From Escherichia coli (GTDB lineage Bacteria; Pseudomonadota; Gammaproteobacteria; Enterobacterales; Enterobacteriaceae), in assembly GCF_003018255.1 (NCBI RefSeq), contig NZ_CP027440.1: a stretch of DNA of 64,000 bases; one strand, given 5' to 3'. The notes below the pieces were generated by a model. The model saw only the letters and a list, made by a program, of their open reading frames with translations. It was not told where the DNA came from and ran no database searches. Below are positions 1-63,001 of this stretch, one piece after another (the first letter of the stretch is position 1; each line of letters begins with the position of its first letter). Position numbers and translations under genes: made by a program.

Positions 1-79
1 CCGGAATGCACTGAAAGGACCGATTACTGCGCTGGCGGAAGATCTGGCGCAACTTCGCGGTGTGCTGGGGCTGGACTAA
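1..79 (+). CDS. efeO: 3' end of efeO (periplasmic iron-uptake protein), partial; stop TAA at 77-79
   Basis: Open frame ending ...[15 protein letters not shown] directly upstream of efeB; matches the EfeO C-terminus from memory. Confidence 0.6.
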
Positions 80-84
80 GCGTT

Positions 85-1356
85 ATGCAGTATGAAGATG
101 AAAACGGCGTGAATGAACCGTCACGCCGACGTTTACTGAAAGGGATTGGTGCGCTGGCGCTGGCGGGAAGTTGTCCGGTCGCTCATGCACAAAAAACGCA
201 AAGTGCGCCGGGTACGCTTTCACCGGATGCACGCAATGAGAAACAGCCGTTTTATGGTGAGCATCAGGCAGGGATCCTGACGCCACAACAGGCTGCAATG
301 ATGCTGGTGGCGTTTGATGTGCTTGCCAGCGATAAAGCCGATCTTGAACGGTTGTTTCGCTTGTTGACTCAGCGTTTTGCTTTTCTGACTCAGGGCGGAG
401 CGGCACCAGAAACGCCAAATCCGCGCCTGCCACCACTCGATTCCGGCATTCTTGGCGGCTACATTGCGCCCGATAATCTCACCATAACGTTATCGGTGGG
501 CCACTCATTGTTTGATGAGCGCTTTGGCCTTGCGCCACAGATGCCGAAAAAGTTGCAGAAGATGACGCGTTTCCCCAACGACTCGCTGGATGCGGCGTTA
601 TGTCATGGTGATGTGTTGCTACAAATTTGCGCCAACACCCAGGACACGGTGATCCATGCGCTGCGCGATATCATCAAACACACGCCGGATTTGCTCAGCG
701 TGCGCTGGAAGCGGGAAGGGTTTATTTCCGACCACGCGGCGCGTAGTAAAGGTAAAGAGACACCGATTAATTTGCTGGGTTTCAAAGACGGCACTGCCAA
801 TCCCGATAGCCAGAATGCGAAGTTGATGCAAAAAGTGGTGTGGGTGACGGCAGATCAGCAGGAGCCTGCGTGGACAATCGGTGGTAGCTACCAGGCGGTG
901 CGGTTGATTCAGTTTCGGGTGGAATTTTGGGACAGAACGCCGCTGAAAGAACAGCAGACGATATTTGGGCGTGATAAGCAAACCGGCGCGCCGCTGGGAA
1001 TGCAGCATGAGCATGATGTGCCTGATTACGCCAGCGATCCGGAGGGGAAGGTGATCGCGCTGGACAGCCATATCCGGCTGGCGAATCCCCGCACGCCAGA
1101 GAGTGAGTCAAGTCTGATGCTGCGTCGTGGCTACAGTTATTCGTTGGGCGTCACCAATTCCGGGCAACTCGATATGGGGCTACTGTTTGTCTGCTACCAA
1201 CACGATCTGGAAAAGGGCTTCCTGACAGTACAAAAAAGGTTGAATGGAGAGGCGCTGGAGGAATATGTCAAACCTATCGGTGGCGGCTATTTCTTTGCGC
1301 TGCCGGGTGTGAAGGACGCGAACGATTATCTCGGAAGCGCATTATTGCGGGTTTAA
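85..1356 (+). CDS. efeB: Deferrochelatase / dye-decolorizing peroxidase EfeB, Tat-secreted
   Basis: 423-aa ORF; N-terminus has a twin-arginine signal ([17 protein letters not shown]...AHA); length matches EfeB. Confidence 0.95.
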
Positions 1357-1362
1357 TGTTTT

Positions 1363-1492
1363 TAGGCGGATAAGGCGTTTACGCCGCACCAGGCGTTCGT
1401 GCGCTGATGCGACGCTTGCGCGTCTTATCATGCCTACAATCGGTGCGGGTTCGGTAGGCCGGATAAGGCGTTCACGCCGCATCCGGCAAGCT
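1363..1492. repeat. REP/BIME cluster (repetitive extragenic palindromes)
   Basis: Several copies of the GCCGGATAAGGCGTTYACGCCGCATCCGGC-type palindromic unit in alternating orientation between efeB and phoH. Confidence 0.7.
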
Positions 1493-1539
1493 TTTACCAG
1501 TACTGCGAATCCTGCTGAAAGCACACAGCTTTTTTATCA

Positions 1540-1557
1540 CTGTCATCACTTTGTCAT
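1540..1557 (+). promoter_or_regulatory. Pho box (PhoB binding site) of the phoH promoter
   Basis: CTGTCAT-cact-TTGTCAT: two 7-bp direct repeats with 4-bp spacer, matching the PhoB box consensus, upstream of phoH. Confidence 0.6.
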
Positions 1558-1981
1558 CTTTCCAGTAGAAACTAATGTCACTGAAATGGTGTTTTATGGT
1601 TAAATATAAGTGAATATATTGTTGCAATGAATGCGAGATCTGGTGTAATTATTAAGTAGCAGCGGAAGTTCCCGGCAGTGATAGTCAGTCACTATGGAGA
1701 TCGCGGATGGTAACGTCCTGTACTGGACAATGTTTTGTTAAGCAAGGCTCCACCACTCGCGGAGATTTCTCCTCCGGTAGCAACTTCGTCACTCTGTATT
1801 TTTCTCACTTCCTCTCTTTACTCGTGTTACCGACGCCGCAAACGGTGTGCGTAGCCGTTTTTCGGCATTTTATCCAAAAGCAAACTATGGCTTACAAGGA
1901 AGCCAACCCTCTGATGTTCGTGCGCATAATCGCGCTGCCAACGGCGCGTGTGATGAATACAAACAACTCAAGGTGCTCTCC

Positions 1982-2770
1982 ATGGGAAGACAAAAAGCAG
2001 TGATCAAAGCTCGTCGCGAGGCAAAACGTGTGCTGAGACGGGATTCGCGCAGCCATAAGCAGCGTGAAGAAGAATCGGTCACCTCGCTTGTGCAAATGAG
2101 CGGCGTAGAAGCCATTGGTATGGCCCGCGATAGTCGCGATACCTCGCCCATCCTCGCGCGAAATGAAGCGCAATTGCACTATCTGAAGGCTATTGAGAGT
2201 AAGCAGCTGATATTCGCCACGGGCGAAGCCGGGTGCGGAAAAACCTGGATCAGCGCAGCAAAAGCGGCAGAGGCCCTGATACATAAGGATGTCGACAGGA
2301 TTATCGTCACCCGTCCAGTTCTGCAAGCCGATGAAGATCTTGGCTTCTTACCTGGTGATATCGCAGAAAAGTTTGCTCCCTATTTTCGCCCGGTCTACGA
2401 CGTGCTGGTTCGGCGCTTAGGGGCTTCCTTTATGCAGTACTGCCTGCGACCGGAAATAGGGAAGGTGGAAATTGCGCCGTTCGCCTATATGCGTGGACGT
2501 ACCTTTGAAAATGCAGTCGTCATTCTTGACGAGGCGCAGAATGTGACTGCCGCGCAAATGAAAATGTTTTTAACCCGCCTCGGGGAGAACGTGACGGTTA
2601 TCGTCAACGGTGATATCACGCAATGCGATTTGCCTCGCGGCGTGCGCTCCGGATTAAGTGACGCGCTGGAACGTTTCGAAGAAGATGAAATGGTCGGGAT
2701 CGTCCGATTCGGTAAAGAGAATTGCGTACGTTCGGCACTTTGCCAACGTACGCTACATGCATACAGTTAA
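1982..2770 (+). CDS. phoH: Phosphate-starvation-inducible ATPase PhoH (start uncertain; see findings)
   Basis: Walker A motif GEAGCGKT and PhoH-family core; ATG at 1982 preceded by AAGG. The ORF track opens at GTG 1847 in the same frame; a separate upstream ORF (ATG 1707) is in another frame. Confidence 0.85.
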   Translation: MGRQKAVIKARREAKRVLRRDSRSHKQREEESVTSLVQMSGVEAIGMARDSRDTSPILARNEAQLHYLKAIESKQLIFATGEAGCGKTWISAAKAAEALIHKDVDRIIVTRPVLQADEDLGFLPGDIAEKFAPYFRPVYDVLVRRLGASFMQYCLRPEIGKVEIAPFAYMRGRTFENAVVILDEAQNVTAAQMKMFLTRLGENVTVIVNGDITQCDLPRGVRSGLSDALERFEEDEMVGIVRFGKENCVRSALCQRTLHAYS

Positions 2771-2819
2771 GTGTATTATCGGCGCAGAGCCCGGGCGAAC
2801 CGGGCTTTGTTTTGGGTGT

Positions 2820-3233
2820 TTATACCCGGACTAGCGTTTTTTCTGAAACCACCATTTTTATTTGTCCCTGACTGGTGAAGTGTACGCTCATCCTGTGGCT
2901 TTTTTGTAGTTGCTGATAAAGCTCATCAGGTATTGCTAAGCTCTCTGCATATTCTTGCGGCGTATATTGGTATGCTGCATGATGCTGCTGTTTTTTAAAA
3001 CGCAGCTTATTGTACAATGCCCAGACGATTAACACGACGGCATTCGCCACTGCCAGCAAAAAATAGAACTGAAGTCGGCTTCTGGCCTCGCTTTGCCAGT
3101 AATAACCCGTCAGCAGATCAATGGCGAATAAGAATATGAACAAAGCAAATAATGTCCACAAGATGGTTGTGGCAACATAATCAACCAGTAAACGTACTGG
3201 CGATTGTCGGGTCGTAATAATTAGATTGTTCAT
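2820..3233 (-). CDS. pgaD: PGA biosynthesis protein PgaD
   Basis: 137-aa membrane protein immediately downstream of pgaC; length and sequence match PgaD. Confidence 0.9.
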
Positions 3234-3234
3234 A

Positions 3235-4560
3235 TTAACCTCTCAGAATCCCACGATCGGGACTTACCCAACGAGCGCGTTGTTTTTTAGGCATCAACAT
3301 GACTCGTGTAAATGATACCAATGTCGTTGCCAGGCTTAGCATCCAGAAAATAACCGGAAACCAAATAATCCAGAAAAGCGATGAAGCCAGATTGTGCTCA
3401 TAGCGATTCTCAATTACCAGACTGACAATAAATTGCAGTAAACATAACGTGCACAATAATATTCCGGCAGTATGTGTCGCTGCGATATGTGTCAATTCAA
3501 TATTTAACGGTACACCTGCAAGTTGGACTGCGTAAATAATGAAACCGACCAGGCAGGTAAAGGCCCATATTGTCGTCAGGCAGTATTCAAAAAACAGTGG
3601 CCACATTCGAAAGTTTTCTTTTCGCCACAACCTTGTCATATTTTTGAGGAATACTTCTGCACCGCCCTGAGCCCAGCGCAGGCGCTGTTTCCACAGCCCT
3701 TTTAACGTTTCAGGCATTAATATCCAGCACAGCGCCCGTGGCTCGTAAAAAATCGTCCACTGATTCAACTGCAGCTTCCAGCTAATATCAATATCTTCGG
3801 TGATCATATCGTCACTCCAGTAACCCACTTCTGCCAGGGCGCTGCGACGAAATGCGGCAATAACACCGGAAACGGTAAATACATTTCCATAGATACGCTG
3901 GGTCCGCTTGATCAAACCAATAATTGAGGAATACTCGCCAACCTGAATTTTACCCACTAGGGTAGAACGTGTGCGAATACGAGGATTACCGGTTACGGCA
4001 CCCACACGTGGGTTGTACAACATCGGTTCCACAATATATGCCGCTGCATCGCGGTCTAATAACGCGTCGCCATCAATGCACACCAGATATTCACTTTTCG
4101 CCGCGGCAGCTCCGGTTTTAAGCGCAATGGCTTTCCCCTGGTTTTGCGCCAGATGAATGACCCGCAGACGGGGAATTTGTGCAGCCATGCGATCCAGGAT
4201 GGCACGGGTTTTGTCTGTTGAACCATCATTTACGGCAATAACTTCAATGTTCTCATAACGCTGTGCTAAAGCGGCATGTATGGTTTCCTCAACGTTTTTC
4301 TCCTCATTAAAACAGGGAATGATAATGGAGATAGATGGATTATCTTTCAACTGGGGGGCTGGTGCGTTTTCTCCCCACGGCCAGTGGCGTTCACGATAGA
4401 CCCAGAAATAGACGCCGCCAATAATCCACATAATGGACATAAAAAACGGCCAGAAGAAAACGAACCTCATCATCAGTTCACCAGAGTGAAAGTACGCTAC
4501 GCATAGAGGTATGCATAACACCAGACATAATATAAAAAACGATACGATGCGATTAATCAT
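3235..4560 (-). CDS. pgaC: Poly-beta-1,6-N-acetylglucosamine synthase PgaC (GT2 glycosyltransferase)
   Basis: 441-aa ORF with GT2 motifs ([23 protein letters not shown]). Confidence 0.95.
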
Positions 4561-6571
4561 TTTTCGGATACCAGGCTGTTGAAAACTCAGGACGAATAAC
4601 GTCTATTTCAGGTTGGTTATGCAGAAAATTGTCGGGATAATAACCATAATTTTTCACTCCATTCAGTTGTAATAGGCTCATCCAGTGAGCGAGTTGTTGT
4701 GAAGAAATAGCCTGATGCTGACCATTTTTCTGCCAGTTTTGTGCCTGTAATTCTAAAATTGATTTGTCTTTAGCCTGCGGGATGCTTTTCATCTGATTGG
4801 TCAATTGTGTTAACCATTGATCAGCCGATTTTTCTGTGACGCCTTCCATATAAGGCATAGCCATAATAGCGGTCCAGTCATAGCTTTTTAGGAAATCAGC
4901 ATAATTCTGTGCAAACCAAGCTTCACTTTCAGGTTGTATTACCGGAAGTGCAAAAATATTTCGTGCAGTTTTAACATGTGGACCACGAATGGCTTTTACG
5001 CGCGCACTAAGTTCTAAAGTGAAGTCAGTTAACGCACGACTTTTAAAGCGGGTCCACTGTTTGAATTGCTCCGGGTTTTGTCGAATTTCGCTCAGACTCC
5101 CGCTAAAGCCAGCTTGCTGATAAGCCGCGATAGCCGCTGCACTGGCATCTTCATAATCTGAAAGCAAAGCATCATCGTGGAACAATATGCCATCAAAAGC
5201 AGCATGTCCGGCAAGATCATCATATAACATGCCAACTTGTGCTCTGACCCTGTCATCGAAAGGGGAGAGACGGCGGTATTGTTCAGGATGAATTTGTGCT
5301 TTTTTCTCCCCAGTTGGTAAGTATTTTACTCGCGTTAATGTGGGATCTAAATCCCAGCTTAATACCGGCATCCACGCATAGATGTTTACACCTGAGCGGG
5401 TACGCAATTGCCAGGCAACCCGACTAAAAATATCTGCTTTCATTGGTAGCAAACGATTTGGAAACCAGACCTCTTTAACCAGCCCATCACCATCGGGATC
5501 AGCAAATGCTTGTAAATACACGGTAGATATTTGCATATCTTTTACCCTCTGAATTAGCACATCAATATTGCGATCCATTTGCTGGCGGTTTTCGTCATAA
5601 ATGTAATCAAGATCGATATGCATTACCCGTTGTAGTGGTTTTTCCTGTACGGTAATAATTTGCTGGGCAAACTCTTTTAATGAGGGATTATTGGCGATTA
5701 ATACTCGCGGAATGGAATCTAATTGCGACGCATTTGCCAAACCTGATTCAAGGGTGAAGAACATGTCATAACCGAGTTTTTTTAATTCCGCGATTGCTAT
5801 GCCATTCGCTTCGCCATAAGGCCAAACAAAAACGTGTGGATTTACCTCAGCCTTTGTACGCAGGTATTCCGTCATTTTTACAGCATCCAGACGAATTCTT
5901 TCCCGGTATTCTGCTGCGGTTTCATACCGTGCGTGGTCAGTAAAATATGCACGATTTACATATACAGGCAATAAGCTGCCGGTGGCATTAGCCTGAATAC
6001 CGTAGTGAGAATTCCATGTATGAGAAGCGACCTCAACGAGCCGGGAACGCGCAACTTCTCGCACTTGTTGCCACGTGGCAAAATATTCTCGACTGACCAT
6101 CTCATCGCCAAATTTTACTTGTTCATCCGCTGGCGTATCGACCCAACTGCCGACGGGGGCCCATACAGCAGGCCACTGGAAGGCCTGAAGAATTGGGAAG
6201 ACGCGGGTATAAAAACTCTGGTAGCCGTCATCAAAAGTCAGCACTACTGCTTTTTCCGGTAGCGGTTTTCCTCCTCGATGTGCTTCACGAATTTGAGCAA
6301 TACTGACCGGTTGATAACCGTTCTCGCGCAGCCAGGCAAATTGTTCACGCAGTGCTGATGTCCGCACTGACATAAAACGCTGGTCGGCAGCTTCGTCTTC
6401 AACGTTATGCCATGAAATCGCCACAAAACCATTATGCGGCCACGGTTGCTCGGCGAGTAAAGATTCGCGATCCTGTGGCGGTATAAATGATGTTCTTGAC
6501 TGGCTAATGCACGCAGTGAGCATAATTATACTCACCAGCATCAGGATATATTTATTTCCATTACGTAACAT
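4553..6571 (-). CDS. pgaB: PGA N-deacetylase lipoprotein PgaB
   Basis: 672-aa ORF with lipoprotein signal (LTAC) and polysaccharide deacetylase region; overlaps pgaC start by 8 nt. Confidence 0.95.
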
Positions 6572-6579
6572 ATTTATCC

Positions 6580-9003
6580 TTAAAATCTGAATGTCATATC
6601 GAATTCAACGTATAAGTTGTGTTCTCTGTCACCGTCATAAGGTCGTTTTTCCCAGCGTAGCGTTGCGCCAGCATCAATCACGTCATTCCAGCTAATACGT
6701 TGCCCGTAGCCGAGTTGGGTGACGACATCCGTGCCATAATGTTTTTGCCAGGAGGCACCAACACCTGCGCTGAAGATTTGCTCCCAGCTATTTTCATAGC
6801 TTCGCCATAACAAATGACTTGCCTCAAATGCCGGAACAATATCGAACGTTTTTATAGGGTTGTAGTATGGAGTGTCGTGTTCTGTATTTTGTTCGTAATA
6901 CAGATTGGGTAGGAAATCGACAATCAAATATGGTGAAGACCAGATGCGTTCCTGACCCTCAAGTGAGACTTCCTGACGCTGGTTACTGTCGGAAAAATCA
7001 GTGAAAGCCCAGGAGACACCGTACTTACGCCGCTCATTTTGATACCAGCGAACATAAGCCTGAGCACTGTTGCCTGTAACACCATTTTTCATTGCCCGTA
7101 ATGGAACGCGGTGAGAGAGGCGTTCCAGTTGCGAACCAATACGCCAGTTATCATTAAAATCATACCAGCCAGACAGGCGCGCGCCGGGTTTATGCTCATG
7201 ATTGAAAACGCGTTCAGCGTACTCCGCCTCGAGCCAGATATTACGTGACCGCCACTCAACACCCGCCAGCCAGTCGCGAACAATCCCTTTTCCTTCGCTA
7301 AATTGTCCATCGGCATAACCGAATCCAGCAAAACCGCGCCAGTTATCCTTCAGCGGTGGTGAATAAACGATGGTGGTTAAGTCGACATCATGTTTACCAC
7401 TATCCGGGCCTTCGGCATCAATTCCTGTTGAACCAGCTATACGAAGCTCTGCAAGATTATGTACATCAACCGCACGTTTTAAACGTACAACGCCGGGATC
7501 TTGCGGTTCACGTTCGACAACATCGTGCGTTAAGACAGCTGCCTGCTGCCATTCTTGTAACGTTAATGCTGTCCATGCTTGTTCAACCTCCAGATTAATA
7601 TTACGTGGCTCGATCACTTCTGCTTTTTTTAATTCATTTTCTGCTGCACGAGGCCAACCGCGGGCTTGTAACACACTCGCGTAATCAATGCGCAGTCCCT
7701 GATTTCCTGGTGCGTTATAAGCAAGCTCTCTGGCTATCATTTCAGCCTGAGGAAGATCATTACTATATTTTGCTACGGTTGAGAGAAACGAATGCCCCTG
7801 TAACCAGGTATCATTCGGGATGCTCGTAGGCGTGCCCATTAACCGAAGGAAAGGCGGCGAAGTATTAATGGTATGTTGGGTGACAGTTAGCGCGCCGGGA
7901 TAATTTTCACTCTCCAGGTGGCTGTAAAAGAGATCCGCAAGTTCTTCATCGGATAAATCCGGGGCAATGGTCTCCTTGTGATAAAAGAGCTCTGTCATTA
8001 TTGACTGTGCTTTTTTTGGCTGCTGTTCTTTGAGATAAGCCGACGCAACCCAATATTGCGCCCAGGGCGGAATAATTTGCCTCGTATTTTTTAAACGCTG
8101 ATAGTGAGAAATAACGTCTTTATAACGATCGCGAGTTAATAACGCGCCAAGATGATCAACCTGAATACGCTGGTACTGGGCAGTGCGGTCTGAGTTATCG
8201 TGCCACAGAATTTCTAATGCAGCGTATTGGGCGAGGGCGCGATCGGCAATGGCATAACGTTCACTTTCACTGCGCGTAGGCATAAACGACAGTCTGATCA
8301 GTTCGGCATGAATATCAGCGCGAATATCTGGCGTTAAATTGGCATCGTCAATCGCGGCAGCTAGTTGATTATTACGTAATGCCTGCACGTATTCTGTGGG
8401 ATATTGTTGCTTAGATGCATTTTCAGGTAATGACTCTGTCATCGCCCGTAATTCATCCTGATGACGCCCCGTCAGTTTATAGATATAGGCTTCTGCGAGT
8501 AAATTGGCTTTGTCCGGCGCTCCAGATTTAAGCTGCTTAAGTTTAACCAGCGCAGTATCATAGTGACCCGCATCTGCCAGGGTTAAAATTTGTCCCCGTT
8601 GATAATCCTTATTTTGCGGCTCCAGAGAGAGCGCCTTTTGCCACAGTGTAAGCGAGTTTTGCCATTGTTGCAGGTTACGATAAGCGACGGCGACAGCTGC
8701 ATAACCACGCGCTGGTAATTGCTGATGACGGTAGCGGCTGTAAACGGTAATGACCTGTTTATCTTGCCCGGCCCATAAGGCAATTTGTAACCAGTCAGCA
8801 ATTTGGTTATTACTGAGTGTTGATTTTTGTGCAAACCATGACAAAGCTGGCTGAGTATTTCCTTTGCGAGCTTCAATAATCAATGCATCATAGGCGTTAT
8901 TAACAGCACTCTTCGCCGCGGGACTCGCTGCTAAAAATGCGGCAGTAAGAAGTTTCAAAGCCCATTTGGTTTTCGGGCACCTTTTTCTGCTACTTGAATA
9001 CAT
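6580..9003 (-). CDS. pgaA: PGA outer-membrane export porin PgaA (TPR plus beta-barrel)
   Basis: 807-aa ORF with signal peptide; length and sequence match PgaA. Confidence 0.95.
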   Translation of the reverse strand: MYSSSRKRCPKTKWALKLLTAAFLAASPAAKSAVNNAYDALIIEARKGNTQPALSWFAQKSTLSNNQIADWLQIALWAGQDKQVITVYSRYRHQQLPARGYAAVAVAYRNLQQWQNSLTLWQKALSLEPQNKDYQRGQILTLADAGHYDTALVKLKQLKSGAPDKANLLAEAYIYKLTGRHQDELRAMTESLPENASKQQYPTEYVQALRNNQLAAAIDDANLTPDIRADIHAELIRLSFMPTRSESERYAIADRALAQYAALEILWHDNSDRTAQYQRIQVDHLGALLTRDRYKDVISHYQRLKNTRQIIPPWAQYWVASAYLKEQQPKKAQSIMTELFYHKETIAPDLSDEELADLFYSHLESENYPGALTVTQHTINTSPPFLRLMGTPTSIPNDTWLQGHSFLSTVAKYSNDLPQAEMIARELAYNAPGNQGLRIDYASVLQARGWPRAAENELKKAEVIEPRNINLEVEQAWTALTLQEWQQAAVLTHDVVEREPQDPGVVRLKRAVDVHNLAELRIAGSTGIDAEGPDSGKHDVDLTTIVYSPPLKDNWRGFAGFGYADGQFSEGKGIVRDWLAGVEWRSRNIWLEAEYAERVFNHEHKPGARLSGWYDFNDNWRIGSQLERLSHRVPLRAMKNGVTGNSAQAYVRWYQNERRKYGVSWAFTDFSDSNQRQEVSLEGQERIWSSPYLIVDFLPNLYYEQNTEHDTPYYNPIKTFDIVPAFEASHLLWRSYENSWEQIFSAGVGASWQKHYGTDVVTQLGYGQRISWNDVIDAGATLRWEKRPYDGDREHNLYVEFDMTFRF

Positions 9004-9237
9004 CCTGTATTACTCCATGTATTGCCAAAATCTCTCTCTATATCTAATTACAGGTAACTGAAAAGAAAGATATTTTTGCATCTCATAATCCGTTATTAAA
9101 CGCGGAAGAGACACGTGAATTGTTGATGATGAGAAGAAGAAATGATGAGCAGATTGTCCATATAAAATCCTTTTCTCGCCCGAAAATCCATTCCAATGAT
9201 GAGGATCTTCAGGAATACGGCATAAATCCCAATGCCT
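9004..9237 (-). promoter_or_regulatory. pgaA 5' leader with multiple GGA motifs (CsrA-binding leader)
   Basis: AT-rich untranslated region upstream of the pgaA start with at least six GGA motifs on the transcribed strand, one adjacent to the start codon (GGATG). Confidence 0.5.
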
Positions 9238-9590
9238 TTTTCAAAATAAATTAGGATTAAAATAATTAAATCAGTAAATTCCGATGCATAATTTCGGATT
9301 TTTCGAAAGTCCTGATGAAAGGCAGCGCTACTGCACTCACGAATTTAATTGTTATTCCTAATGTATCTATTAATTAATGCTTTATAAGGATTTTATTATA
9401 ATCCTTTATAAGTATTTGCAAGCCTGCCTTGCAGCAAAAAATGTATAAAGCATTAAAGTGATAATAATTACATTCTGCAACTATCATCATCGGTATTGTT
9501 TGTGGGTGGATTTTCATATTGACAACAGTACAGTTCTTATATCTATTAATAATAAAAAGGGATCTACAACCTACAGGTTGGTGTAGCTTT

Positions 9591-10958
9591 ATGGAAAAAG
9601 ACTATTTGGGAATTAGTAGTACTGTATTAGTGAGCTTATTGTTTGGGCTTGCATTGGTTTTGGTTAATAGTTGGTTCAATCAGCCAACCGTTGAGGAAGT
9701 TGTTCCACGATCAACCTATCTGATGGTTATGATTGCTTTATTTTTTATCGATACTGTTGCATTTATTTTTATGCAGTTGTATTTCATTTATGACCGTAGG
9801 CAATTTTCAAACTGTATACTTAGTTTGGCTTTTCTAAGTTGTTTGATTTACTTTATTAAAACCGTCATTATCATTCAGCAAATTATTGAGGGGCGTTTGA
9901 CAAGCAGTGTTGTTCAAAATGACATTGCAATTTATTATTTGTTTCGTCAGATGAGTTTGTGCGTATTAATATTTCTGGCATTGGTAAATAAAGTTAGTGA
10001 AAACACAAAACAGCGCAATTTGTTTTCCAAAAAAGTGACTTTGTGCATAACTTTGTTTTTTGTTCTTGGGGGGCCGATAGTTGCTCACATATTTTCTAGC
10101 CATTATGAGAGCTACGATTTACACATTGCCGAGTTAACCAATAAAAATGGTCAGGTGGTTTGGAAAGCCTCATATGTTACCATAATGATTTTCATGTGGT
10201 TAACCTTGCTTTCGGTTAATCTATACTTTAATGGTTTACGCTGTGATATCTGGAACGGGGTGTCGGTGATTGCTTTTTGTGCCGTGCTGTACAATATCTC
10301 TCTGTTATTTATGAGCAGGTATAGCGTGTCCATTTGGTATATTAGTCGCACTATTGAAGTAGTCAGTAAGTTAACCGTTTTGGTAATTTTTATGTGCCAT
10401 ATATTCAGTGCGCTACGAGTAACAAAGGACATTGCACATCGCGATCCCTTAACCAATATATTTAACAGAAATTATTTTTTTAATGAACTGACGGTTCAAT
10501 CAGCATCGGCCAAAAAAAAACCTTATTGCGTCATGATTATGGATATTGACCACTTCAAAAAAGTCAACGACACCTGGGGACATCCGGTTGGCGATCAAGT
10601 GATAAAGACAGTGGTGAATATCATTGGGAAAAGCATACGACCAGATGACCTTTTAGCGCGCGTTGGCGGCGAAGAGTTTGGCGTCTTGCTGACGGAGATC
10701 GATACTGAATGTGCGAAAGCTTTAGCGGAAAGGATTCGGGAAAATGTTGAACGTTTAACTGGCGATAATCCTGAATACGCCATACCACAAAAAGTGACAA
10801 TTAGTATTGGCGCTGTTGTAACGCAGAAAAATGAGTTAAACCCTAAGGAGATCTATCAACTGGCTGATAACGCACTTTACGAGGCGAAAGAGACCGGGCG
10901 TAATAAGGTGGTAGTAAAAGAGGCAGAAATTCTTATCAACCGCAAGGATGATGAATGA
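9591..10958 (+). CDS. dgcT: Membrane-anchored diguanylate cyclase (GGDEF) YcdT/DgcT
   Basis: Multi-TM N-terminal half plus C-terminal GGDEF domain (RVGGEEFGVLL); start placed at ATG 9591 (MEKDYLGISS), downstream of the ORF-track start. Confidence 0.85.
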   Translation: MEKDYLGISSTVLVSLLFGLALVLVNSWFNQPTVEEVVPRSTYLMVMIALFFIDTVAFIFMQLYFIYDRRQFSNCILSLAFLSCLIYFIKTVIIIQQIIEGRLTSSVVQNDIAIYYLFRQMSLCVLIFLALVNKVSENTKQRNLFSKKVTLCITLFFVLGGPIVAHIFSSHYESYDLHIAELTNKNGQVVWKASYVTIMIFMWLTLLSVNLYFNGLRCDIWNGVSVIAFCAVLYNISLLFMSRYSVSIWYISRTIEVVSKLTVLVIFMCHIFSALRVTKDIAHRDPLTNIFNRNYFFNELTVQSASAKKKPYCVMIMDIDHFKKVNDTWGHPVGDQVIKTVVNIIGKSIRPDDLLARVGGEEFGVLLTEIDTECAKALAERIRENVERLTGDNPEYAIPQKVTISIGAVVTQKNELNPKEIYQLADNALYEAKETGRNKVVVKEAEILINRKDDE

Positions 10959-11020
10959 GTCTGTCGCTAGTTGTCGACCTCCGCCTGGGGCTTCTCATCC
11001 CCCAGTGTGTGAAATATACG

Positions 11021-11048
11021 AAAAAAAGCTCGCACTTTCGTACGAGCT
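11021..11048 (-). terminator. Intrinsic terminator downstream of serX
   Basis: Hairpin AGCTCG...CGAGCT followed by a U-run on the minus strand, just 3' of the tRNA. Confidence 0.45.
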
Positions 11049-11060
11049 CTTCTTTAAATA

Positions 11061-11148
11061 TGGCGGTGAGGGGGGGATTCGAACCCCCGATACGTTGCCG
11101 TATACACACTTTCCAGGCGTGCTCCTTCAGCCACTCGGACACCTCACC
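11061..11148 (-). tRNA. serX: tRNA-Ser (anticodon GGA), encoded CCA, long variable arm
   Basis: Reverse complement reads GGTGAGGTGTCCGAGTGGCTGAAGGAGCACGCCTGGAAAGTGTG...GGTTCGAATCCCCCCCTCACCGCCA; anticodon loop CUGGAAA gives anticodon GGA. Confidence 0.93.
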
Positions 11149-11182
11149 AAATTGTCGTTCCTGTCTTGCTGGAACGGGCGCT

Positions 11183-11211
11183 AATTTAGGGAAATCATGA
11201 CCTGAGGTCAA
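11183..11211 (-). promoter_or_regulatory. Putative sigma70 promoter of serX
   Basis: TTGACC - 17 nt - TAAATT on the minus strand, followed by a GC-rich discriminator, about 30 nt upstream of the mature tRNA 5' end. Confidence 0.5.
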
Positions 11212-11329
11212 CAAACTTTTTTAAAAAATCGCTCGATTATTCAAACTTCAATCAATATGCAGTTTTAATAAGCGAAATTTGCTTTTTTTGCCACCGACCA
11301 CGGATTTGTTATGCTGCTGGTCTTTGTAG

Positions 11330-19313: not shown

Positions 19314-19847
19314 ATGAAAACGCGTATTCATGTTGTGCAGGGTGATATTACCAAACTGGCCGTTGATGTGATTGTGAATGCGGCTAATCCGTCATTAATG
19401 GGAGGCGGCGGCGTCGATGGGGCCATTCATCGCGCAGCGGGTCCGGCCCTGCTGGATGCCTGTTTAAAAGTCAGGCAGCAGCAGGGCGATTGCCCTACGG
19501 GGCATGCCGTTATTACGCTTGCAGGCGATCTTCCCGCGAAAGCCGTAGTGCACACCGTCGGGCCAGTCTGGCGTGGTGGTGAACAAAACGAAGACCAGCT
19601 TTTGCAGGATGCCTATCTCAATAGCCTGCGACTGGTGGCAGCAAACAGCTATACGTCAGTGGCTTTTCCTGCAATCAGTACTGGAGTTTATGGTTACCCT
19701 CGTGCGGCAGCGGCTGAAATCGCAGTAAAAACCGTTTCAGAATTTATTACCCGTCACGCTTTACCCGAACAGGTATACTTTGTCTGTTATGATGAAGAAA
19801 ACGCCCACCTCTACGAAAGACTCCTTACTCAACAAGGAGATGAATGA
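19314..19847 (+). CDS. ymdB: Macrodomain protein YmdB (O-acetyl-ADP-ribose deacetylase)
   Basis: 177-aa ORF with macro-domain motifs ([24 protein letters not shown]). Confidence 0.93.
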
Positions 19848-19848
19848 T

Positions 19849-21270
19849 TTGCCCCGGCTGGCGAGTGCGGTGCTGCCACTGTGTTCGCAACATCCCGGTC
19901 AGTGTGGCATTTTTCCTCTGGAGAAAAGTCTGGATGCGTTTGCCGCCCGGTATCGTCTGGCCGAAATGGCAGAGCATACGCTGGATGTTCAGTATTACAT
20001 CTGGCAGGACGATATGTCGGGTCGGTTACTCTTTTCCGCCCTGTTAGCCGCAGCAAAGCGTGGCGTTCGCGTCCGTTTGTTGCTGGACGACAACAATACG
20101 CCCGGACTTGACGACATTTTACGCTTGCTTGACAGTCATCCCCGCATTGAAGTCCGGCTTTTTAATCCTTTCTCGTTTCGCTTGCTACGTCCGCTTGGTT
20201 ATATCACCGACTTTTCCCGTCTCAATCGCCGTATGCACAATAAAAGTTTCACTGTCGATGGCGTGGTGACGCTGGTAGGGGGGCGAAATATTGGTGATGC
20301 CTATTTTGGGGCAGGGGAAGAGCCACTTTTTTCGGATTTAGATGTCATGGCAATAGGACCAGTTGTAGAGGACGTTGCCGATGATTTCGCCCGCTACTGG
20401 TATTGCAAATCGGTTTCACCCCTACAGCAGGTGCTGGATGTCCCGGAAGGTGAAATGGCGGATCGCATCGAGTTACCAGCATCCTGGCACAACGATGCCA
20501 TGACGCATCGTTATTTACGCAAAATGGAATCCAGCCCGTTTATAAATCATCTGGTTGATGGAACGTTGCCGCTTATCTGGGCGAAAACACGTTTATTAAG
20601 TGATGATCCGGCGAAAGGGGAAGGCAAGGCAAAACGGCATTCACTGTTACCGCAGCGCCTGTTCGATATCATGGGCTCACCCAGTGAACGCATCGATATT
20701 ATCTCTTCCTATTTTGTACCGACACGCGCAGGTGTGGCGCAACTCTTACGGATGGTGAGAAAAGGGGTAAAGATTGCGATCCTAACCAATTCTCTTGCCG
20801 CTAACGATGTTGCTGTCGTCCATGCCGGATACGCGCGCTGGCGCAAAAAATTGCTCCGCTATGGCGTGGAATTATATGAACTCAAGCCGACGCGTGAACA
20901 AAGTAGTACGTTACACGATCGCGGCATAACCGGTAATTCCGGTGCCAGCTTGCATGCTAAAACCTTTAGCATCGATGGTAAAACGGTGTTTATCGGCTCT
21001 TTCAATTTCGATCCGCGTTCAACATTGCTCAATACTGAAATGGGCTTCGTGATAGAGAGCGAAACGCTGGCACAGTTAATTGATAAACGCTTTATTCAGA
21101 GCCAGTATGATGCGGCCTGGCAGCTCCGTCTGGACAGGTGGGGACGGATCAACTGGGTTGATCGTCATGCAAAGAAAGAGATTATTCTCAAAAAAGAACC
21201 CGCCACCAGTTTCTGGAAGCGGGTTATGGTCAGACTGGCGTCGATATTGCCCGTGGAATGGTTATTATAA
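19849..21270 (+). CDS. clsC: Cardiolipin synthase C (phospholipase D family, two HKD motifs)
   Basis: Two HxKxxxxD motifs (HNKSFTVDG, HAKTFSIDG). Start placed at TTG 19849, 9 nt after AAGGAG, giving 473 aa; the in-frame ATG at 19840 overlaps the ymdB stop. Confidence 0.88.
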   Translation: MPRLASAVLPLCSQHPGQCGIFPLEKSLDAFAARYRLAEMAEHTLDVQYYIWQDDMSGRLLFSALLAAAKRGVRVRLLLDDNNTPGLDDILRLLDSHPRIEVRLFNPFSFRLLRPLGYITDFSRLNRRMHNKSFTVDGVVTLVGGRNIGDAYFGAGEEPLFSDLDVMAIGPVVEDVADDFARYWYCKSVSPLQQVLDVPEGEMADRIELPASWHNDAMTHRYLRKMESSPFINHLVDGTLPLIWAKTRLLSDDPAKGEGKAKRHSLLPQRLFDIMGSPSERIDIISSYFVPTRAGVAQLLRMVRKGVKIAILTNSLAANDVAVVHAGYARWRKKLLRYGVELYELKPTREQSSTLHDRGITGNSGASLHAKTFSIDGKTVFIGSFNFDPRSTLLNTEMGFVIESETLAQLIDKRFIQSQYDAAWQLRLDRWGRINWVDRHAKKEIILKKEPATSFWKRVMVRLASILPVEWLL

Positions 21271-22717: not shown

Positions 22718-26900
<4,183 letters not shown>

Positions 26901-36902: not shown

Positions 36903-37550
36903 TTAAATCGCCATTGATGATAACAAATTGATTTGTGTCTGTTTCGCCATATTATCGCGGTAATCAGCAACGCGGCTTGGCCAGTTAATTCCGGCTACCA
37001 GCGTCAGATTACGCAGCAGCGGAAATAGCTGAATATCATCTTCCGAAAGTTCGCCATTCACGGCGTTCGGTTTGACGATCAGTTTGTCCAGCGCACGTAA
37101 ATCATCGCTGATATTCTTAATCAGACCGTCAGAGTGGGCCAGCAGGTCGGCAAAATTACCCGCGCTAGCCTCTTTCTTGTCGACGAAATATTTGCGCGCG
37201 GCGGGAGTAGAAAACTCATCAAATGCCGATTTGGCAAAACGCGGCAACAGCAGTTTGTTGGCGTAGCCATTGACCTTGCGCAGCCACTCTTCAATGGCAG
37301 GGGAACGTTTGCCGGTCAGTAACGGTTTGCCGTCGAGTTTATCGACATAGTGAACGATGTCCATGCTTTCTGGCATATAGCGGCTGTCATCTTTTTGCAG
37401 AATGGGAACCTGTTTTTGACCGACCATCCGGGTGGGTGTTTCTGCGTCGTCGTTGAGCAGAACATGTAATTCGACGGGGATATTTTTCAGGCCGAAAATC
37501 ATGCGGGCTTTGAGGCAGTAAGGGCAGTGATCGTAAATGTATAGCTTCAC
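36903..37550 (-). CDS. grxB: Glutaredoxin 2
   Basis: 215-aa ORF with CPYC active site (MKLYIYDHCPYCLKARMIF...). Confidence 0.93.
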   Translation of the reverse strand: MKLYIYDHCPYCLKARMIFGLKNIPVELHVLLNDDAETPTRMVGQKQVPILQKDDSRYMPESMDIVHYVDKLDGKPLLTGKRSPAIEEWLRKVNGYANKLLLPRFAKSAFDEFSTPAARKYFVDKKEASAGNFADLLAHSDGLIKNISDDLRALDKLIVKPNAVNGELSEDDIQLFPLLRNLTLVAGINWPSRVADYRDNMAKQTQINLLSSMAI

Positions 37551-39057: not shown

Positions 39058-40300
<1,243 letters not shown>

Positions 40301-40301
40301 A

Positions 40302-41225
40302 GTGAAAAAATTACGTATCGGCGTAGTGGGATTAGGCGGCATTGCGCAAAAAGCGTGGTTACCGGTGCTGGCGGCAGCGTCTGACTGGATGTTACAAGGA
40401 GCCTGGTCGCCTACGCGCGCGAAAGCCCTGCCAATTTGTGAAAGCTGGCGCATTCCTTATGCCGATTCGTTATCCAGCCTTGCCGCCAGTTGCGATGCGG
40501 TTTTTGTGCATTCCAGCACCGCCAGCCACTTTGACGTGGTCAGTACGTTACTCAATGCGGGGGTACATGTCTGTGTCGATAAACCGCTGGCAGAAAATCT
40601 GCGCGATGCTGAACGGTTGGTGGAACTGGCGGCGCGGAAAAAACTGACGTTGATGGTCGGTTTTAACCGTCGTTTCGCACCACTCTACGGAGAGTTAAAA
40701 ACGCAACTCGCCCCCGCAGCCTCGCTAAGAATGGATAAACATCGTAGCAATAGCGTCGGGCCACACGATCTTTATTTCACGTTGCTGGATGATTATTTGC
40801 ATGTGGTGGATACCGCGCTGTGGTTGTCGGGCGGCAAAGCTTCTCTGGATGGCGGTACGCTACTGACTAACGACGCTGGCGAAATGCTGTTTGCCGAGCA
40901 CCATTTTTCGGCCGGTCCTTTGCAGATCACCACCTGTATGCATCGCCGTGCCGGAAGTCAGCGTGAAACCGTGCAGGCCGTGACTGACGGTGCGCTCATC
41001 GACATTACGGATATGCGCGAATGGCGTGAGGAGCGCGGGCAGGGCGTAGTGCATAAACCGATTCCTGGTTGGCAGAGTACGCTTGAGCAACGTGGATTTG
41101 TCGGCTGTGCGCGGCACTTCATTGAATGCGTGCAAAATCAGACAGTTCCGCAAACCGCCGGCGAACAGGCAGTGCTGGCGCAACGTATCGTTGACAAGAT
41201 CTGGCGCGATGCGATGAGTGAATAA
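40302..41225 (+). CDS. yceM: Gfo/Idh/MocA-family oxidoreductase YceM (MviM)
   Basis: GTG start at 40302 giving 307 aa (MKKLRIGVVGLGGIAQKAW...) with Rossmann GxGxxG. Confidence 0.88.
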   Translation: MKKLRIGVVGLGGIAQKAWLPVLAAASDWMLQGAWSPTRAKALPICESWRIPYADSLSSLAASCDAVFVHSSTASHFDVVSTLLNAGVHVCVDKPLAENLRDAERLVELAARKKLTLMVGFNRRFAPLYGELKTQLAPAASLRMDKHRSNSVGPHDLYFTLLDDYLHVVDTALWLSGGKASLDGGTLLTNDAGEMLFAEHHFSAGPLQITTCMHRRAGSQRETVQAVTDGALIDITDMREWREERGQGVVHKPIPGWQSTLEQRGFVGCARHFIECVQNQTVPQTAGEQAVLAQRIVDKIWRDAMSE

Positions 41226-49765: not shown

Positions 49766-50863
49766 GTGATTAAATTTCTCTCTGCATTAATTCTTCTACT
49801 GGTTACGACGGCGGCTCAGGCTGAGCGTATTCGCGATCTCACCAGTGTTCAGGGGGTAAGGCAAAACTCACTGATTGGCTATGGCCTGGTGGTGGGGCTG
49901 GATGGAACTGGTGACCAGACAACTCAGACGCCGTTTACCACACAAACGCTTAATAACATGCTCTCACAGCTGGGAATTACCGTTCCGACGGGCACTAATA
50001 TGCAGCTAAAAAACGTCGCTGCGGTTATGGTGACAGCGTCACTTCCACCGTTTGGACGTCAGGGGCAAACCATTGACGTGGTGGTTTCTTCCATGGGAAA
50101 TGCCAAAAGTCTGCGTGGCGGTACGTTATTGATGACACCGCTTAAGGGCGTTGACAGTCAGGTGTATGCGCTGGCGCAGGGCAATATTCTGGTTGGCGGC
50201 GCAGGGGCCTCCGCTGGCGGTAGCAGTGTTCAGGTGAACCAACTGAACGGTGGACGGATCACCAATGGTGCGGTTATTGAACGTGAATTGCCCAGCCAGT
50301 TTGGCGTCGGGAATACCCTTAATTTGCAACTTAACGACGAAGATTTCAGCATGGCACAGCAAATCGCTGACACCATCAACCGAGTGCGTGGATATGGCAG
50401 CGCCACCGCGTTGGATGCGCGGACTATTCAGGTGCGCGTACCGAGTGGCAACAGTTCCCAGGTCCGTTTCCTTGCCGATATCCAGAATATGCAGGTTAAT
50501 GTTACCCCGCAGGACGCTAAAGTAGTGATTAACTCGCGCACCGGTTCGGTGGTGATGAATCGCGAAGTGACCCTCGACAGCTGCGCGGTAGCGCAGGGAA
50601 ATCTCTCAGTAACAGTTAATCGCCAGGCCAATGTCAGCCAGCCAGATACACCGTTTGGTGGTGGACAGACTGTGGTTACTCCACAAACGCAGATCGATTT
50701 ACGCCAGAGCGGCGGTTCGCTGCAAAGCGTACGTTCCAGCGCCAGCCTCAATAACGTGGTGCGTGCGCTCAATGCGCTGGGCGCTACGCCGATGGATCTG
50801 ATGTCTATTTTGCAATCAATGCAAAGTGCGGGATGTCTGCGGGCAAAACTGGAAATCATCTGA
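49766..50863 (+). CDS. flgI: Flagellar P-ring protein FlgI
   Basis: 365-aa product from GTG 49766 ([19 protein letters not shown]...) with signal peptide. Confidence 0.93.
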
Positions 50864-51804
50864 TGATCAGCGACAGCAAACTACTGGCAAGTGCGGCCTG
50901 GGATGCACAATCGCTCAACGAACTTAAGGCGAAAGCGGGCGAAGATCCGGCGGCAAATATCCGTCCGGTGGCCCGCCAGGTGGAAGGGATGTTCGTGCAG
51001 ATGATGTTGAAAAGCATGCGCGACGCTTTACCAAAAGATGGCCTGTTCAGCAGCGAGCACACTCGCCTGTATACCAGTATGTATGACCAGCAGATTGCCC
51101 AACAGATGACGGCGGGCAAAGGTCTGGGGCTGGCAGAGATGATGGTTAAACAGATGACGCCAGAACAACCATTGCCAGAGGAGTCCACGCCAGCAGCACC
51201 GATGAAATTCCCGCTCGAAACCGTGGTGCGTTATCAAAATCAGACGCTTTCGCAGCTGGTGCAAAAGGCCGTACCACGTAACTACGATGATTCGCTGCCG
51301 GGTGACAGTAAAGCATTCCTCGCGCAACTCTCGTTGCCCGCCCAACTGGCAAGCCAGCAAAGCGGTGTGCCACATCATTTGATCCTCGCTCAGGCGGCGC
51401 TGGAATCTGGCTGGGGACAACGGCAAATCCGCCGTGAAAACGGCGAGCCGAGCTATAACCTGTTTGGCGTCAAAGCCTCTGGCAACTGGAAAGGGCCAGT
51501 CACTGAAATCACCACGACTGAATATGAAAATGGCGAAGCGAAGAAAGTAAAAGCGAAGTTTCGGGTCTACAGCTCGTATCTGGAAGCATTGTCGGATTAC
51601 GTTGGGCTGTTAACGCGTAACCCGCGCTACGCCGCCGTGACGACCGCCGCGAGTGCGGAGCAGGGGGCGCAGGCCCTACAGGACGCGGGCTATGCCACCG
51701 ATCCTCACTATGCCCGCAAACTCACCAGCATGATTCAGCAGATGAAATCGATAAGCGACAAGGTGAGCAAAACCTACAGCATGAACATTGATAATCTGTT
51801 CTGA
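50863..51804 (+). CDS. flgJ: Flagellar rod assembly protein / peptidoglycan hydrolase FlgJ
   Basis: 313-aa product; start ATG overlaps the flgI stop (TGATG); C-terminal glucosaminidase domain. Confidence 0.93.
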   Translation: MISDSKLLASAAWDAQSLNELKAKAGEDPAANIRPVARQVEGMFVQMMLKSMRDALPKDGLFSSEHTRLYTSMYDQQIAQQMTAGKGLGLAEMMVKQMTPEQPLPEESTPAAPMKFPLETVVRYQNQTLSQLVQKAVPRNYDDSLPGDSKAFLAQLSLPAQLASQQSGVPHHLILAQAALESGWGQRQIRRENGEPSYNLFGVKASGNWKGPVTEITTTEYENGEAKKVKAKFRVYSSYLEALSDYVGLLTRNPRYAAVTTAASAEQGAQALQDAGYATDPHYARKLTSMIQQMKSISDKVSKTYSMNIDNLF

Positions 51805-54572: not shown

Positions 54573-55357
<785 letters not shown>

Positions 55358-61930: not shown

Positions 61931-63001
61931 TTGACACGTCTAACCCTGGCGTTAGATGTCATGGGAGGGGATTTTGGCCCTTCCGTGACAGTGCCTGCAG
62001 CATTGCAGGCACTGAATTCTAATTCGCAACTCACTCTTCTTTTAGTCGGCAATCCCGACGCCATCACGCCATTACTTGCTAAAGCTGACTTTGAACAACG
62101 TTCGCGTCTGCAGATTATTCCTGCGCAGTCAGTTATCGCCAGTGATGCCCGGCCTTCGCAAGCTATCCGCGCCAGTCGTGGGAGTTCAATGCGCGTGGCA
62201 CTGGAGCTGGTGAAAGAAGGTCGAGCGCAAGCCTGTGTCAGTGCCGGTAATACCGGGGCGCTAATGGGGCTGGCAAAATTATTACTCAAGCCCCTGGAGG
62301 GGATTGAGCGTCCGGCGCTGGTGACGGTATTACCGCATCAGCAAAAGGGCAAAACGGTGGTCCTCGATTTAGGGGCCAACGTCGATTGTGACAGTACAAT
62401 GTTGGTGCAATTTGCCATTATGGGCTCAGTTCTGGCTGAAGAGGTGGTGGAAATTCCTAATCCTCGCGTGGCGTTGCTCAATATTGGTGAAGAAGAAGTA
62501 AAGGGTCTCGACAGTATTCGGGATGCCTCAGCGGTGCTTAAAACAATCCCTTCTATCAATTATATCGGCTATCTTGAAGCCAATGAGTTGTTAACTGGCA
62601 AGACAGATGTGCTGGTTTGTGACGGCTTTACAGGAAATGTCACATTAAAGACGATGGAAGGTGTTGTCAGGATGTTCCTTTCTCTGCTGAAATCTCAGGG
62701 TGAAGGGAAAAAACGGTCGTGGTGGCTACTGTTATTAAAGCGTTGGCTACAAAAGAGCCTGACGAGGCGATTCAGTCACCTCAACCCCGACCAGTATAAC
62801 GGCGCCTGTCTGTTAGGATTGCGCGGCACGGTGATAAAAAGTCATGGTGCAGCCAATCAGCGAGCTTTTGCGGTCGCGATTGAACAGGCAGTGCAGGCGG
62901 TGCAGCGACAAGTTCCTCAGCGAATTGCCGCTCGCCTGGAATCTGTATACCCAGCTGGTTTTGAGCTGCTGGACGGTGGCAAAAGCGGAACTCTGCGGTA
63001 G
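61931..63001 (+). CDS. plsX: Phosphate acyltransferase PlsX
   Basis: 356-aa ORF from TTG 61931 ([17 protein letters not shown]...). Confidence 0.93.

Follow-up and report, generated by a model that had tools for sequence, protein, structure and literature searches.

Competing candidate translation starts of clsC at its junction with ymdB in Escherichia coli, among otherwise ordinary non-canonical and overlapping starts

The genes ymdB and clsC adjoin on the plus strand of a 64-kb stretch of Escherichia coli chromosome, which as a whole is called the window here. A first-pass annotation of the window had listed clsC among several genes with non-canonical or overlapping starts. The listed starts are real but of an ordinary kind, and E. 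coli annotation already includes them. Only clsC is disputed among them, with two reference annotations that place its start 60 bases apart.

Feature coordinates are given in Table 1. The ymdB gene ends in TGA at 19845–19847. The clsC product belongs to the phospholipase D superfamily, has Pfam PLDc_2 in two stretches and a PLDc active-site motif, and is named ClsC in RefSeq. The curated MG1655 gene (b1046, NP_415564.2; NC_000913.3 1106355–1107776) has the same TTG start, position after ymdB, and 473-aa product as the window gene, and its start at 1106355 maps to window position 19849. Two silent-type differences separate the window strain from K-12 near the junction, and the TTG reads identically in both. 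The RefSeq/PGAP model (e.g., WP_001563098.1) is 493 aa in length, shares frame and stop with the window gene, starts 60 nt upstream, and overlaps ymdB by 59 nt. All five E. coli records examined have ATG 19789 as the PGAP start, and in each of the 60 genomes sampled PGAP starts clsC upstream of 19836. This choice cannot be explained through NCBIfam, which lacks a model specific to ClsC. When the N-terminal 104 aa were used as a protein query, most matches were fragments. YmdB-ClsC fusions (651–653 aa) were considered and rejected; they consist of a frameshifted ymdB running into the clsC frame and are probably mutations or assembly errors. The idea of a lipoprotein signal was set aside, as LPLC presumably does not match the lipobox.

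Table 1. Coordinates of genes, candidate starts, and junction elements in the window
Feature	Position	Strand	Remarks
pgaB/pgaC 8-nt overlap	4553..4560	-	ATGATTAA on the minus strand; INRI-seq peaks at both starts
ymdB CDS	19314..19847	+	Macrodomain O-acetyl-ADP-ribose deacetylase; from ORF list; K-12 and PGAP agree
ATG ATG inside ymdB	19789..19794	+	ymdB +1 frame; ATG 19789 is the RefSeq/PGAP clsC start
CTCCTT, ymdB Leu-Leu codons	19821..19826	+	Complementary to the Shine-Dalgarno; predicted 6-bp hairpin
ymdB Leu codon CTT before Thr	19824..19826	+	clsC frame open only with CTT or CTC
AAGGAG Shine-Dalgarno	19834..19839	+	Within the final ymdB codons
Candidate clsC start ATG	19840..19842	+	clsC frame; abuts the Shine-Dalgarno (spacing 0); CDS would overlap the last 8 nt of ymdB (ATGAATGA)
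clsC CDS, 473 aa, curated K-12 model	19849..21270	+	TTG start 19849–19851
opgG/opgH 8-nt overlap	24357..24364	+	ATGAATAA; INRI-seq peaks at both starts
yceM GTG start	40302..40304	+	TAAaGTG, 1 nt beyond the yceH stop; K-12 and PGAP agree
flgI GTG start	49766..49768	+	K-12 and PGAP agree; in vitro INRI-seq peak
TGATG	50861..50865	+	flgI stop and flgJ ATG (50863), one base in common
plsX TTG start	61931..61933	+	K-12 and PGAP agree

All coordinates of the first-pass annotation proved correct when checked on the letters, the ORF list, and the K-12 mapping. The starts it gave for yceM, flgI, plsX, and flgJ and the overlap of opgG and opgH are those of curated K-12 and of PGAP, the latter taken from NZ_CP116067.1, which is near-identical to the window. 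The pga operon is absent from NZ_CP116067.1, and the pgaB/pgaC overlap was matched to curated K-12 as the one annotation that covers it. INRI-seq peaks were found in vitro for yceM, whose Pfam Rossmann domain begins at residue 4, and in four of five replicates for flgJ. No INRI-seq or Ribo-RET peak was found for plsX; its Pfam FA_synthesis domain runs from residue 5, and a start at the codon-11 ATG would truncate the domain. The opgG/opgH and pgaB/pgaC pairs both lack a well-spaced Shine-Dalgarno. The GTG start of grxB (37550, minus strand) was missing from the list. The 63 PGAP genes in the window start with ATG (59 genes), GTG (three), and TTG (one), with the clsC TTG added if the curated model is taken. 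Non-ATG starts are not enriched in the window (4–5 of 63 genes); in E. coli as a whole, they make up about 12% of starts (INRI-seq paper).

Several ORF-track starts had also been called N-terminally over-extended. This holds for yceM (TTG 40269), flgI (GTG 49763), flgJ (ATG 50833), opgH (GTG 24327), opgG (ATG 22811), and clsC (TTG 19780). It fails for plsX, in which TTG 61931 is the earliest canonical start of the open frame. For clsC, the upstream ORF start is not simply over-extended, as the RefSeq/PGAP ATG 19789 is conserved together with its open frame.

The curated clsC start lies in the clsC frame, 1 nt beyond the ymdB stop and 9 nt downstream of AAGGAG. The duplex of this Shine-Dalgarno with the anti-Shine-Dalgarno has an energy of −8.5 kcal/mol, and TTG is the only clsC candidate to which the spacing is usable. 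The hexamer occurs 14 times on both strands of the window, and its presence upstream of TTG is not a chance feature. It is formed by the ymdB Gly codon GGA; Salmonella and Citrobacter youngae have GGC or GGT, which give AAGGCG or AAGGTG. Complete AAGGAG was seen in E. coli and E. fergusonii only among the lineages compared. The predicted hairpin that would mask it has −6.2 kcal/mol, with a probability of 0.02 that the Shine-Dalgarno is unpaired in the −30..+40 context. The junction region folded as a whole is not significantly structured (z = −0.67), and only the local hairpin is notable.

Conservation was compared across 28 lineages. Ortholog alignment, a check named in the first-pass annotation, shows that the TTG position is ATG in six Citrobacter loci, those of the Citrobacter freundii group. 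Lineages with Leu at this position use TTG in seven of ten cases against a 15% background in the same genes (binomial 1.5e-4, which treats lineages as independent); the other three have TTA (two) or CTG (one). Of 17 further columns with invariant Leu, not one is dominated by TTG. The stop-1 nt-start layout, TGAtTTG in the window, is found as TGAtATG in Citrobacter, TGAcGTG in Cedecea, and TAAcGTG and TAAtTTG in Buttiauxella. Homology of the 473-aa model to relatives by tblastn starts at query residues 1–4, and a conserved RL motif lies no more than three codons past TTG. E. albertii has TTA and AAGGCG at the junction, and the junction start is therefore dispensable in this sister species. Of 5,426 E. 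coli genomes, 5,202 contain one of two exact 31-mers that span AAGGAG, ATG, and TTG, and the remaining variants sampled keep all three elements. Loss of TTG in the ~890 E. coli genomes without the exact 31-mer was considered and rejected; the common variant is a silent change of CCC to CCT.

The upstream ATG is present with an open frame in 24 of the 28 lineages. It is the sole canonical start in Salmonella, Leclercia, Enterobacter ENT03, and Superficieibacter, and the junction offers only a poorly placed GTG in an Enterobacter MAG and Kosakonia. These six all have an ATG ~66 nt upstream with an open frame. When codons are shuffled synonymously, an open frame with ATG arises by chance with a probability of 0.2–0.3 per lineage. 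The ymdB Tyr codon that forms the upstream ATG is TAT in seven of seven genera, and the ymdB Leu codon before Thr is CTT or CTC in eight of eight, with the adjacent Leu codon free to vary. E. coli retains TAT and CTT, the choices that keep the upstream start and frame. In Citrobacter R56 and the P0137 lineage the codon is CTG, which puts a TGA into the clsC frame, and a junction start is retained in both. The upstream start or its frame is lost in these two and in C. werkmanii and B. agrestis, so that the junction start is the only option in the four. The start codon and the stop-avoiding codon are all that looks constrained in the overlap. The N-terminal extension peptide varies freely through changes that are silent in ymdB, and ymdB synonymous divergence is 0.49 in the overlap versus 0.56 elsewhere. 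ATG 19789 has no usable Shine-Dalgarno; the best match, CAGGUAUAC, reaches −3.8 kcal/mol at 10-nt spacing. Most of this start region is predicted to be free of pairing, and AAG AAA follows the ATG. Enterobacterales ClsC homologs without a ymdB neighbor still have an N-terminal tail of 15–21 aa.

Both sites are present in 20 lineages, the junction site only in four, the upstream site only in four, and no lineage has lost both. In these counts, a GTG or TTG in frame and no more than 24 nt away was enough to be scored as a junction start, which makes the class loose, and the lineages are related, so that the counts are not independent. Every E. coli genome sampled keeps both sites. The relatives suggest that both clsC start sites may work.

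Published start-site data were searched for clsC. The TTG scored 0 in five in vitro INRI-seq replicates and 0 in the Meydan Ribo-RET data. On the isolated −30..+150 INRI-seq transcript, there was no peak at TTG or at the ATG 9 nt upstream. These zeros are weak negative evidence because INRI-seq recovers ~70% of annotated starts (INRI-seq paper) and clsC is a stationary-phase gene (PMC8027125). In the start-site data searched, no candidate clsC start has support. No match to clsC, ymdC, or b1046 was found in the supplements, where present, of TRAINSPOTTER, Salmonella riboproteogenomics, the Meydan preprint, REPARATION, and Giess et al. Translation of clsC is not addressed in the CsrA-ymdA paper. 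Kim & Kim 2017 name in their title the "ymdAB-clsC operon." On clones, ymdB in cis raises ClsC levels "by an unknown mechanism" (PMC8027125), and the ymdB product is not required according to the title of a 2024 paper (Sawasato & Bogdanov 2024), for which a bioRxiv search returned no relevant preprint.

We lean modestly towards TTG 19849 as the likeliest site of clsC initiation, with coupling to ymdB, and the older ATG 19789 may also be used. Ribosomes finishing ymdB would melt the small hairpin that covers the AAGGAG Shine-Dalgarno. They would then terminate at TGA, 1 nt ahead of TTG, leading to initiation or re-initiation there. The product would be the 473-aa ClsC of the curated K-12 annotation. 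ATG 19789, which E. coli has kept intact, would be the more ancient start in the gene family. The junction geometry, the annotations, and the conservation across lineages are observed directly; the codon used by the ribosome, the hairpin, and the coupling we infer. Consistent with coupling are the predicted pairing of the Shine-Dalgarno with CUCCUU in ymdB, the absence of a peak on the isolated transcript, and the cis effect of ymdB.

Three other readings were weighed. It is possible, if rather doubtful, that clsC begins at ATG 19789 (or 19792) by initiation without a Shine-Dalgarno in an AU-rich unstructured stretch and that TTG is an internal Leu codon. The uniform PGAP placement and the spread of the upstream ATG and open frame, including the four lineages with no other canonical start, fit such a start, as do the TAT and CTT/CTC codons, which are exactly the synonymous choices that preserve the ATG and its frame, and the shuffling null. 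So do the predicted unpaired start region with AAG AAA next and the ~20-aa N-terminal tail of relatives, even those without ymdB alongside. A start at this site would also account for the need of the ymdB 3′ end in cis. However, it would have to do without a usable Shine-Dalgarno in the path of ribosomes on ymdB, and the extension shows no sign of protein-level constraint. It leaves the excess of TTG at the junction and the AAGGAG seen in only E. coli and E. fergusonii unexplained, and the four lineages that lost the upstream start still keep clsC. Use of both starts, with a 493-aa ClsC made at ATG 19789 and a 473-aa one at the coupled TTG, is a credible reading that falls short of an even chance. 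The absence of any lineage without either site, the separate selection signature at each site, and the retention of both in every sampled E. coli genome argue for it. The loose junction class and the relatedness of the lineages weaken the counts, and the redundancy could equally be a slow handover between starts.

The last reading, a start at ATG 19840 reached by re-initiation a few bases backward after the ymdB TGA, would yield a 476-aa ClsC and is improbable. Its 8-nt overlap ATGAATGA has the same geometry as ATGAATAA of opgG/opgH and ATGATTAA of pgaB/pgaC, pairs without a well-spaced Shine-Dalgarno, and ATG initiates more strongly than TTG. In some Citrobacter-like lineages, gene callers place the start at the corresponding ATG and annotate proteins of 476 aa, and the codon is kept in E. 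albertii, where TTG is absent. Against this, the ATG arises from the ymdB Asp-Glu codons GAT GAA and is probably a by-product of them. The position reads ACG, AGG, or ACC in lineages that still have TTG, and among 13 loci with Leu at the TTG position ATG is kept in eight versus TTG in ten. Because it abuts the Shine-Dalgarno, initiation guided by that element is impossible there, and INRI-seq reported no alternative start at this codon. The first-pass preference for TTG 19849 over ATG 19840 is borne out, as TTG is the curated K-12 start, alone has suitable Shine-Dalgarno spacing, and is better conserved.

Translationally coupled neighbors with abutting or overlapping stop and start codons include trpE-trpD and trpB-trpA. 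The ymdB-clsC pair resembles such pairs in lying on the same strand, with stop and start a few bases apart and the ribosome-binding site in the upstream gene. Within the window, yceH-yceM (TAAaGTG), flgI-flgJ (TGATG), opgG-opgH, and pgaB-pgaC have this layout. The ymdB-clsC pair differs in its weak TTG downstream start and in a second candidate start 60 nt further upstream, and the coupling is putative. IF2 and ClpB are each made in two forms from alternative in-frame starts. In-frame alternative starts that give N-terminal proteoforms have been described (bioRxiv 10.1101/520783), and clsC likewise has two conserved in-frame candidates. Unlike those cases, the upstream clsC start lies inside another gene in another frame, and the two ClsC forms are putative.

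The choice of record has practical consequences. Curated K-12 gives 473 aa and RefSeq gives 493 aa in the records examined and in the main E. coli protein clusters. Depending on the record trusted, cloning clsC "from its start codon" gives one protein or another, or leaves out the native signals for translation. It is conceivable, at less than even odds, that two starts work: an ancestral ATG without a Shine-Dalgarno, 59 nt inside ymdB, and a younger TTG coupled to ymdB, which would produce 493-aa and 473-aa ClsC. If this is true, both sets of signals would lie inside ymdB, and ymdB would be needed in cis while its protein would not. With an upstream overlapping site and a junction site kept or lost in different lineages, clsC may be a tidy case of a start codon moving in evolution.

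The cardiolipin synthase gene clsC, 3' of ymdB, is annotated from two different starts. The curated K-12 model begins at TTG 19849 (473 aa). RefSeq/PGAP models begin at ATG 19789 (493 aa; NZ_CP116067.1 and four other records) and overlap ymdB by 59 nt, and the annotated start lies upstream of 19836 in 60/60 genomes of a spread sample. For comparison, the curated K-12 MG1655 annotation and the PGAP annotation of NZ_CP116067.1 were transferred directly onto the window, the latter because the two sequences are collinear base for base from about 11.3 kb onward. Window positions 1-11300 carry efeB and the pga operon, as in K-12. NZ_CP116067.1, otherwise near-identical, has in their place an island with Ag43 adhesin and CbtA/YeeU toxin-antitoxin genes and an IS110-family element, adjoining tRNA-Ser. 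The K-12 segment IS3D, ymdE, ycdU is absent from the window. The first-pass annotation had listed loci with non-ATG or overlapping starts; all coordinates, including the positions and spacing of the ymdB-clsC elements, are right, and clsC is the only real annotation disagreement among them. The pgaB/pgaC starts are backed by K-12 alone because NZ_CP116067.1 lacks the pga operon.

Coordinates of the ymdB-clsC junction and of other non-ATG or overlapping starts
Feature	Position	Strand	Detail	Agreement
ymdB	19314-19847		stop TGA 19845-19847	
AAGGAG	19834-19839			
ATG in clsC frame	19840-19842			
TTG in clsC frame	19849-19851		9 nt past AAGGAG, 1 nt past ymdB stop	
yceM start	40302		GTG	curated K-12 and PGAP
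flgI start	49766		GTG	curated K-12 and PGAP
plsX start	61931		TTG	curated K-12 and PGAP
flgJ start	50863		ATG, one base shared with flgI stop	curated K-12 and PGAP
opgG/opgH overlap	24357-24364		8 nt	curated K-12 and PGAP
pgaB/pgaC overlap	4553-4560	minus	8 nt	curated K-12 only

The further claim that ORF-track starts are over-extended holds for clsC, yceM, flgI, flgJ, opgG and opgH, where the mechanical start is longer than the annotated one, and fails for plsX, where no possible start precedes the TTG in frame. In the protein read from this TTG the Pfam PlsX domain starts at residue 5, so the next ATG (codon 11) would truncate it. The Pfam Rossmann domain of YceM starts at residue 4. The dgcT ORF (9519-10958, TTG start, 479 aa) is a further, unlisted over-extended case, since the K-12 gene is shorter (1,359 nt, 452 aa). 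The 63 PGAP genes start with 59 ATG, 3 GTG and 1 TTG, the clsC TTG being extra under the curated model; codons other than ATG make up about 12% of starts in E. coli (PMC9825163), and the window is not enriched. The grxB GTG (37548-37550, minus strand) had been missed; in K-12 it gives a strong peak in INRI-seq, a published in vitro start-site map, as pgaB, pgaC, opgG, opgH, yceM, flgI and flgJ also give peaks at their annotated starts (PMC9825163). Neither TTG start (clsC, plsX) has a peak in this map, which catches about 70% of annotated starts (PMC9825163). The yceH stop and yceM start (40297-40304, TAAaGTG) are spaced like those of ymdB-clsC (TGAtTTG), with 1 nt between stop and start. Between flgL and rne, where K-12 has the small RNA FlgO alone, 54573-55357 (minus strand) encodes a GNAT acetyltransferase and a DUF1778 protein with a 4-nt overlap, which look like a toxin-antitoxin pair.

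TTG 19849 is, with somewhat better than even confidence, a working and probably the main clsC start. The 2.2 kb around the junction was matched in 5,423 of 5,426 complete E. coli genomes (several strains 100% identical), and the junction is nearly invariant: the exact 31-mer with AAGGAG, ATG and TTG occurs in 4,534 genomes, a silent CCC -> CCT variant in 668 more, and other sampled variants retain all three elements. TTG alone has a strong Shine-Dalgarno (SD) at usable spacing (duplex -8.5 kcal/mol). Junctions were compared in 28 lineages of Escherichia, Citrobacter, Salmonella, Enterobacter, Leclercia, Kosakonia, Superficieibacter, Siccibacter, Cedecea and Buttiauxella. In the Citrobacter freundii group an ATG occupies the exact TTG position (TGAtATG). 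A start near the ymdB stop is the sole option in C. werkmanii, Citrobacter R56 and the P0137 lineage, where stop codons shut the upstream frame, and in B. agrestis, where the upstream ATG is absent. Ten lineages have Leu at the TTG position, encoded by TTG in seven, TTA in two and CTG in one, against a 15% TTG share among the Leu codons of those genes (binomial P = 1.5e-4, assuming lineage independence, which holds only in part); TTG predominates in none of 17 other columns with invariant Leu. Among the 28 junctions, E. coli and E. fergusonii alone had the full AAGGAG, made by a ymdB Gly codon GGA; in Salmonella and C. youngae that codon is GGC/GGT, giving AAGGCG/AAGGTG. Initiation at the in-frame ATG 19840 is very unlikely: it immediately abuts the SD and is conserved less than TTG, being ACG, AGG or ACC in lineages that retain TTG. 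The original preference for TTG over this ATG is well supported by ortholog comparison and SD spacing.

Its implicit dismissal of the upstream start is not well supported, as that ATG and its open frame are conserved across lineages. A canonical start close to the junction is missing from Salmonella, Leclercia, Enterobacter ENT03 and Superficieibacter, and in an Enterobacter MAG and Kosakonia the sole candidate there is a badly positioned GTG. Each of these six has an ATG about 66 nt upstream in an open frame, expected by chance in only 20-30% per lineage (ymdB synonymous codon shuffling). The ymdB Tyr codon creating this ATG is TAT in 7/7 genera, and the Leu codon ahead of Thr is in 8/8 either CTT or CTC, the only Leu codons there without a stop in the clsC frame; the adjacent Leu and Tyr codons are free to vary. 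E. coli retains both choices. In one representative E. albertii genome (locus L007, about 770-790) the junction carries TTA and AAGGCG, and the upstream ATG is kept; the TTG and strong SD lost there are kept in E. fergusonii and E. coli. Of the 28 lineages, 20 retain both sites, 4 the junction start only and 4 the upstream start only; no lineage lacks both. An N-terminal tail of 15-21 aa is also present in Enterobacterales ClsC homologues that have no ymdB next to them. Speaking against a strongly functional extension peptide, ymdB-silent changes alter it freely, and synonymous divergence in the overlap (0.49) is close to that in the rest of ymdB (0.56). ATG 19789 has a weak SD match (-3.8 kcal/mol at 10 nt), and as the main start it is unlikely, though a serious contender; use of both starts, an estimate overlapping those for TTG and ATG 19789, is about as likely as ATG 19789 being the main start, or slightly more so. 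'Macro + PLD' proteins of 651-653 aa occur in public assemblies (P0121 and P0122, E. coli; P0130 and P0131, Salmonella); they are frameshifted ymdB read on into the clsC frame and show that this frame is open over a long stretch inside ymdB (146 codons in Salmonella locus L011).

In a predicted hairpin, AAGGAG pairs with CUCCUU 19821-19826 (ymdB Leu-Leu codons) over 6 bp at -6.2 kcal/mol, with P(SD unpaired) = 0.02; the entire region shows no unusual degree of structure (z = -0.67). Ribosomes at the end of ymdB would melt this hairpin and then terminate 1 nt ahead of TTG. A stop immediately before a start, with a hairpin opened by upstream ribosomes, is the classic layout of translational coupling. 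By the title of a 2024 paper, the ymdB product is reportedly not required. A review describes ClsC levels as raised by clones with ymdB 'by an unknown mechanism' (PMC8027125), and INRI-seq has no initiation peak on the isolated clsC transcript (-30..+150; PMC9825163). Coupling fits these three observations, the isolated-transcript null, the ymdB clones and the reported dispensability of the product; a start inside ymdB would fit them too. What the first pass recorded is accurate and for the most part repeats annotation that was already known.
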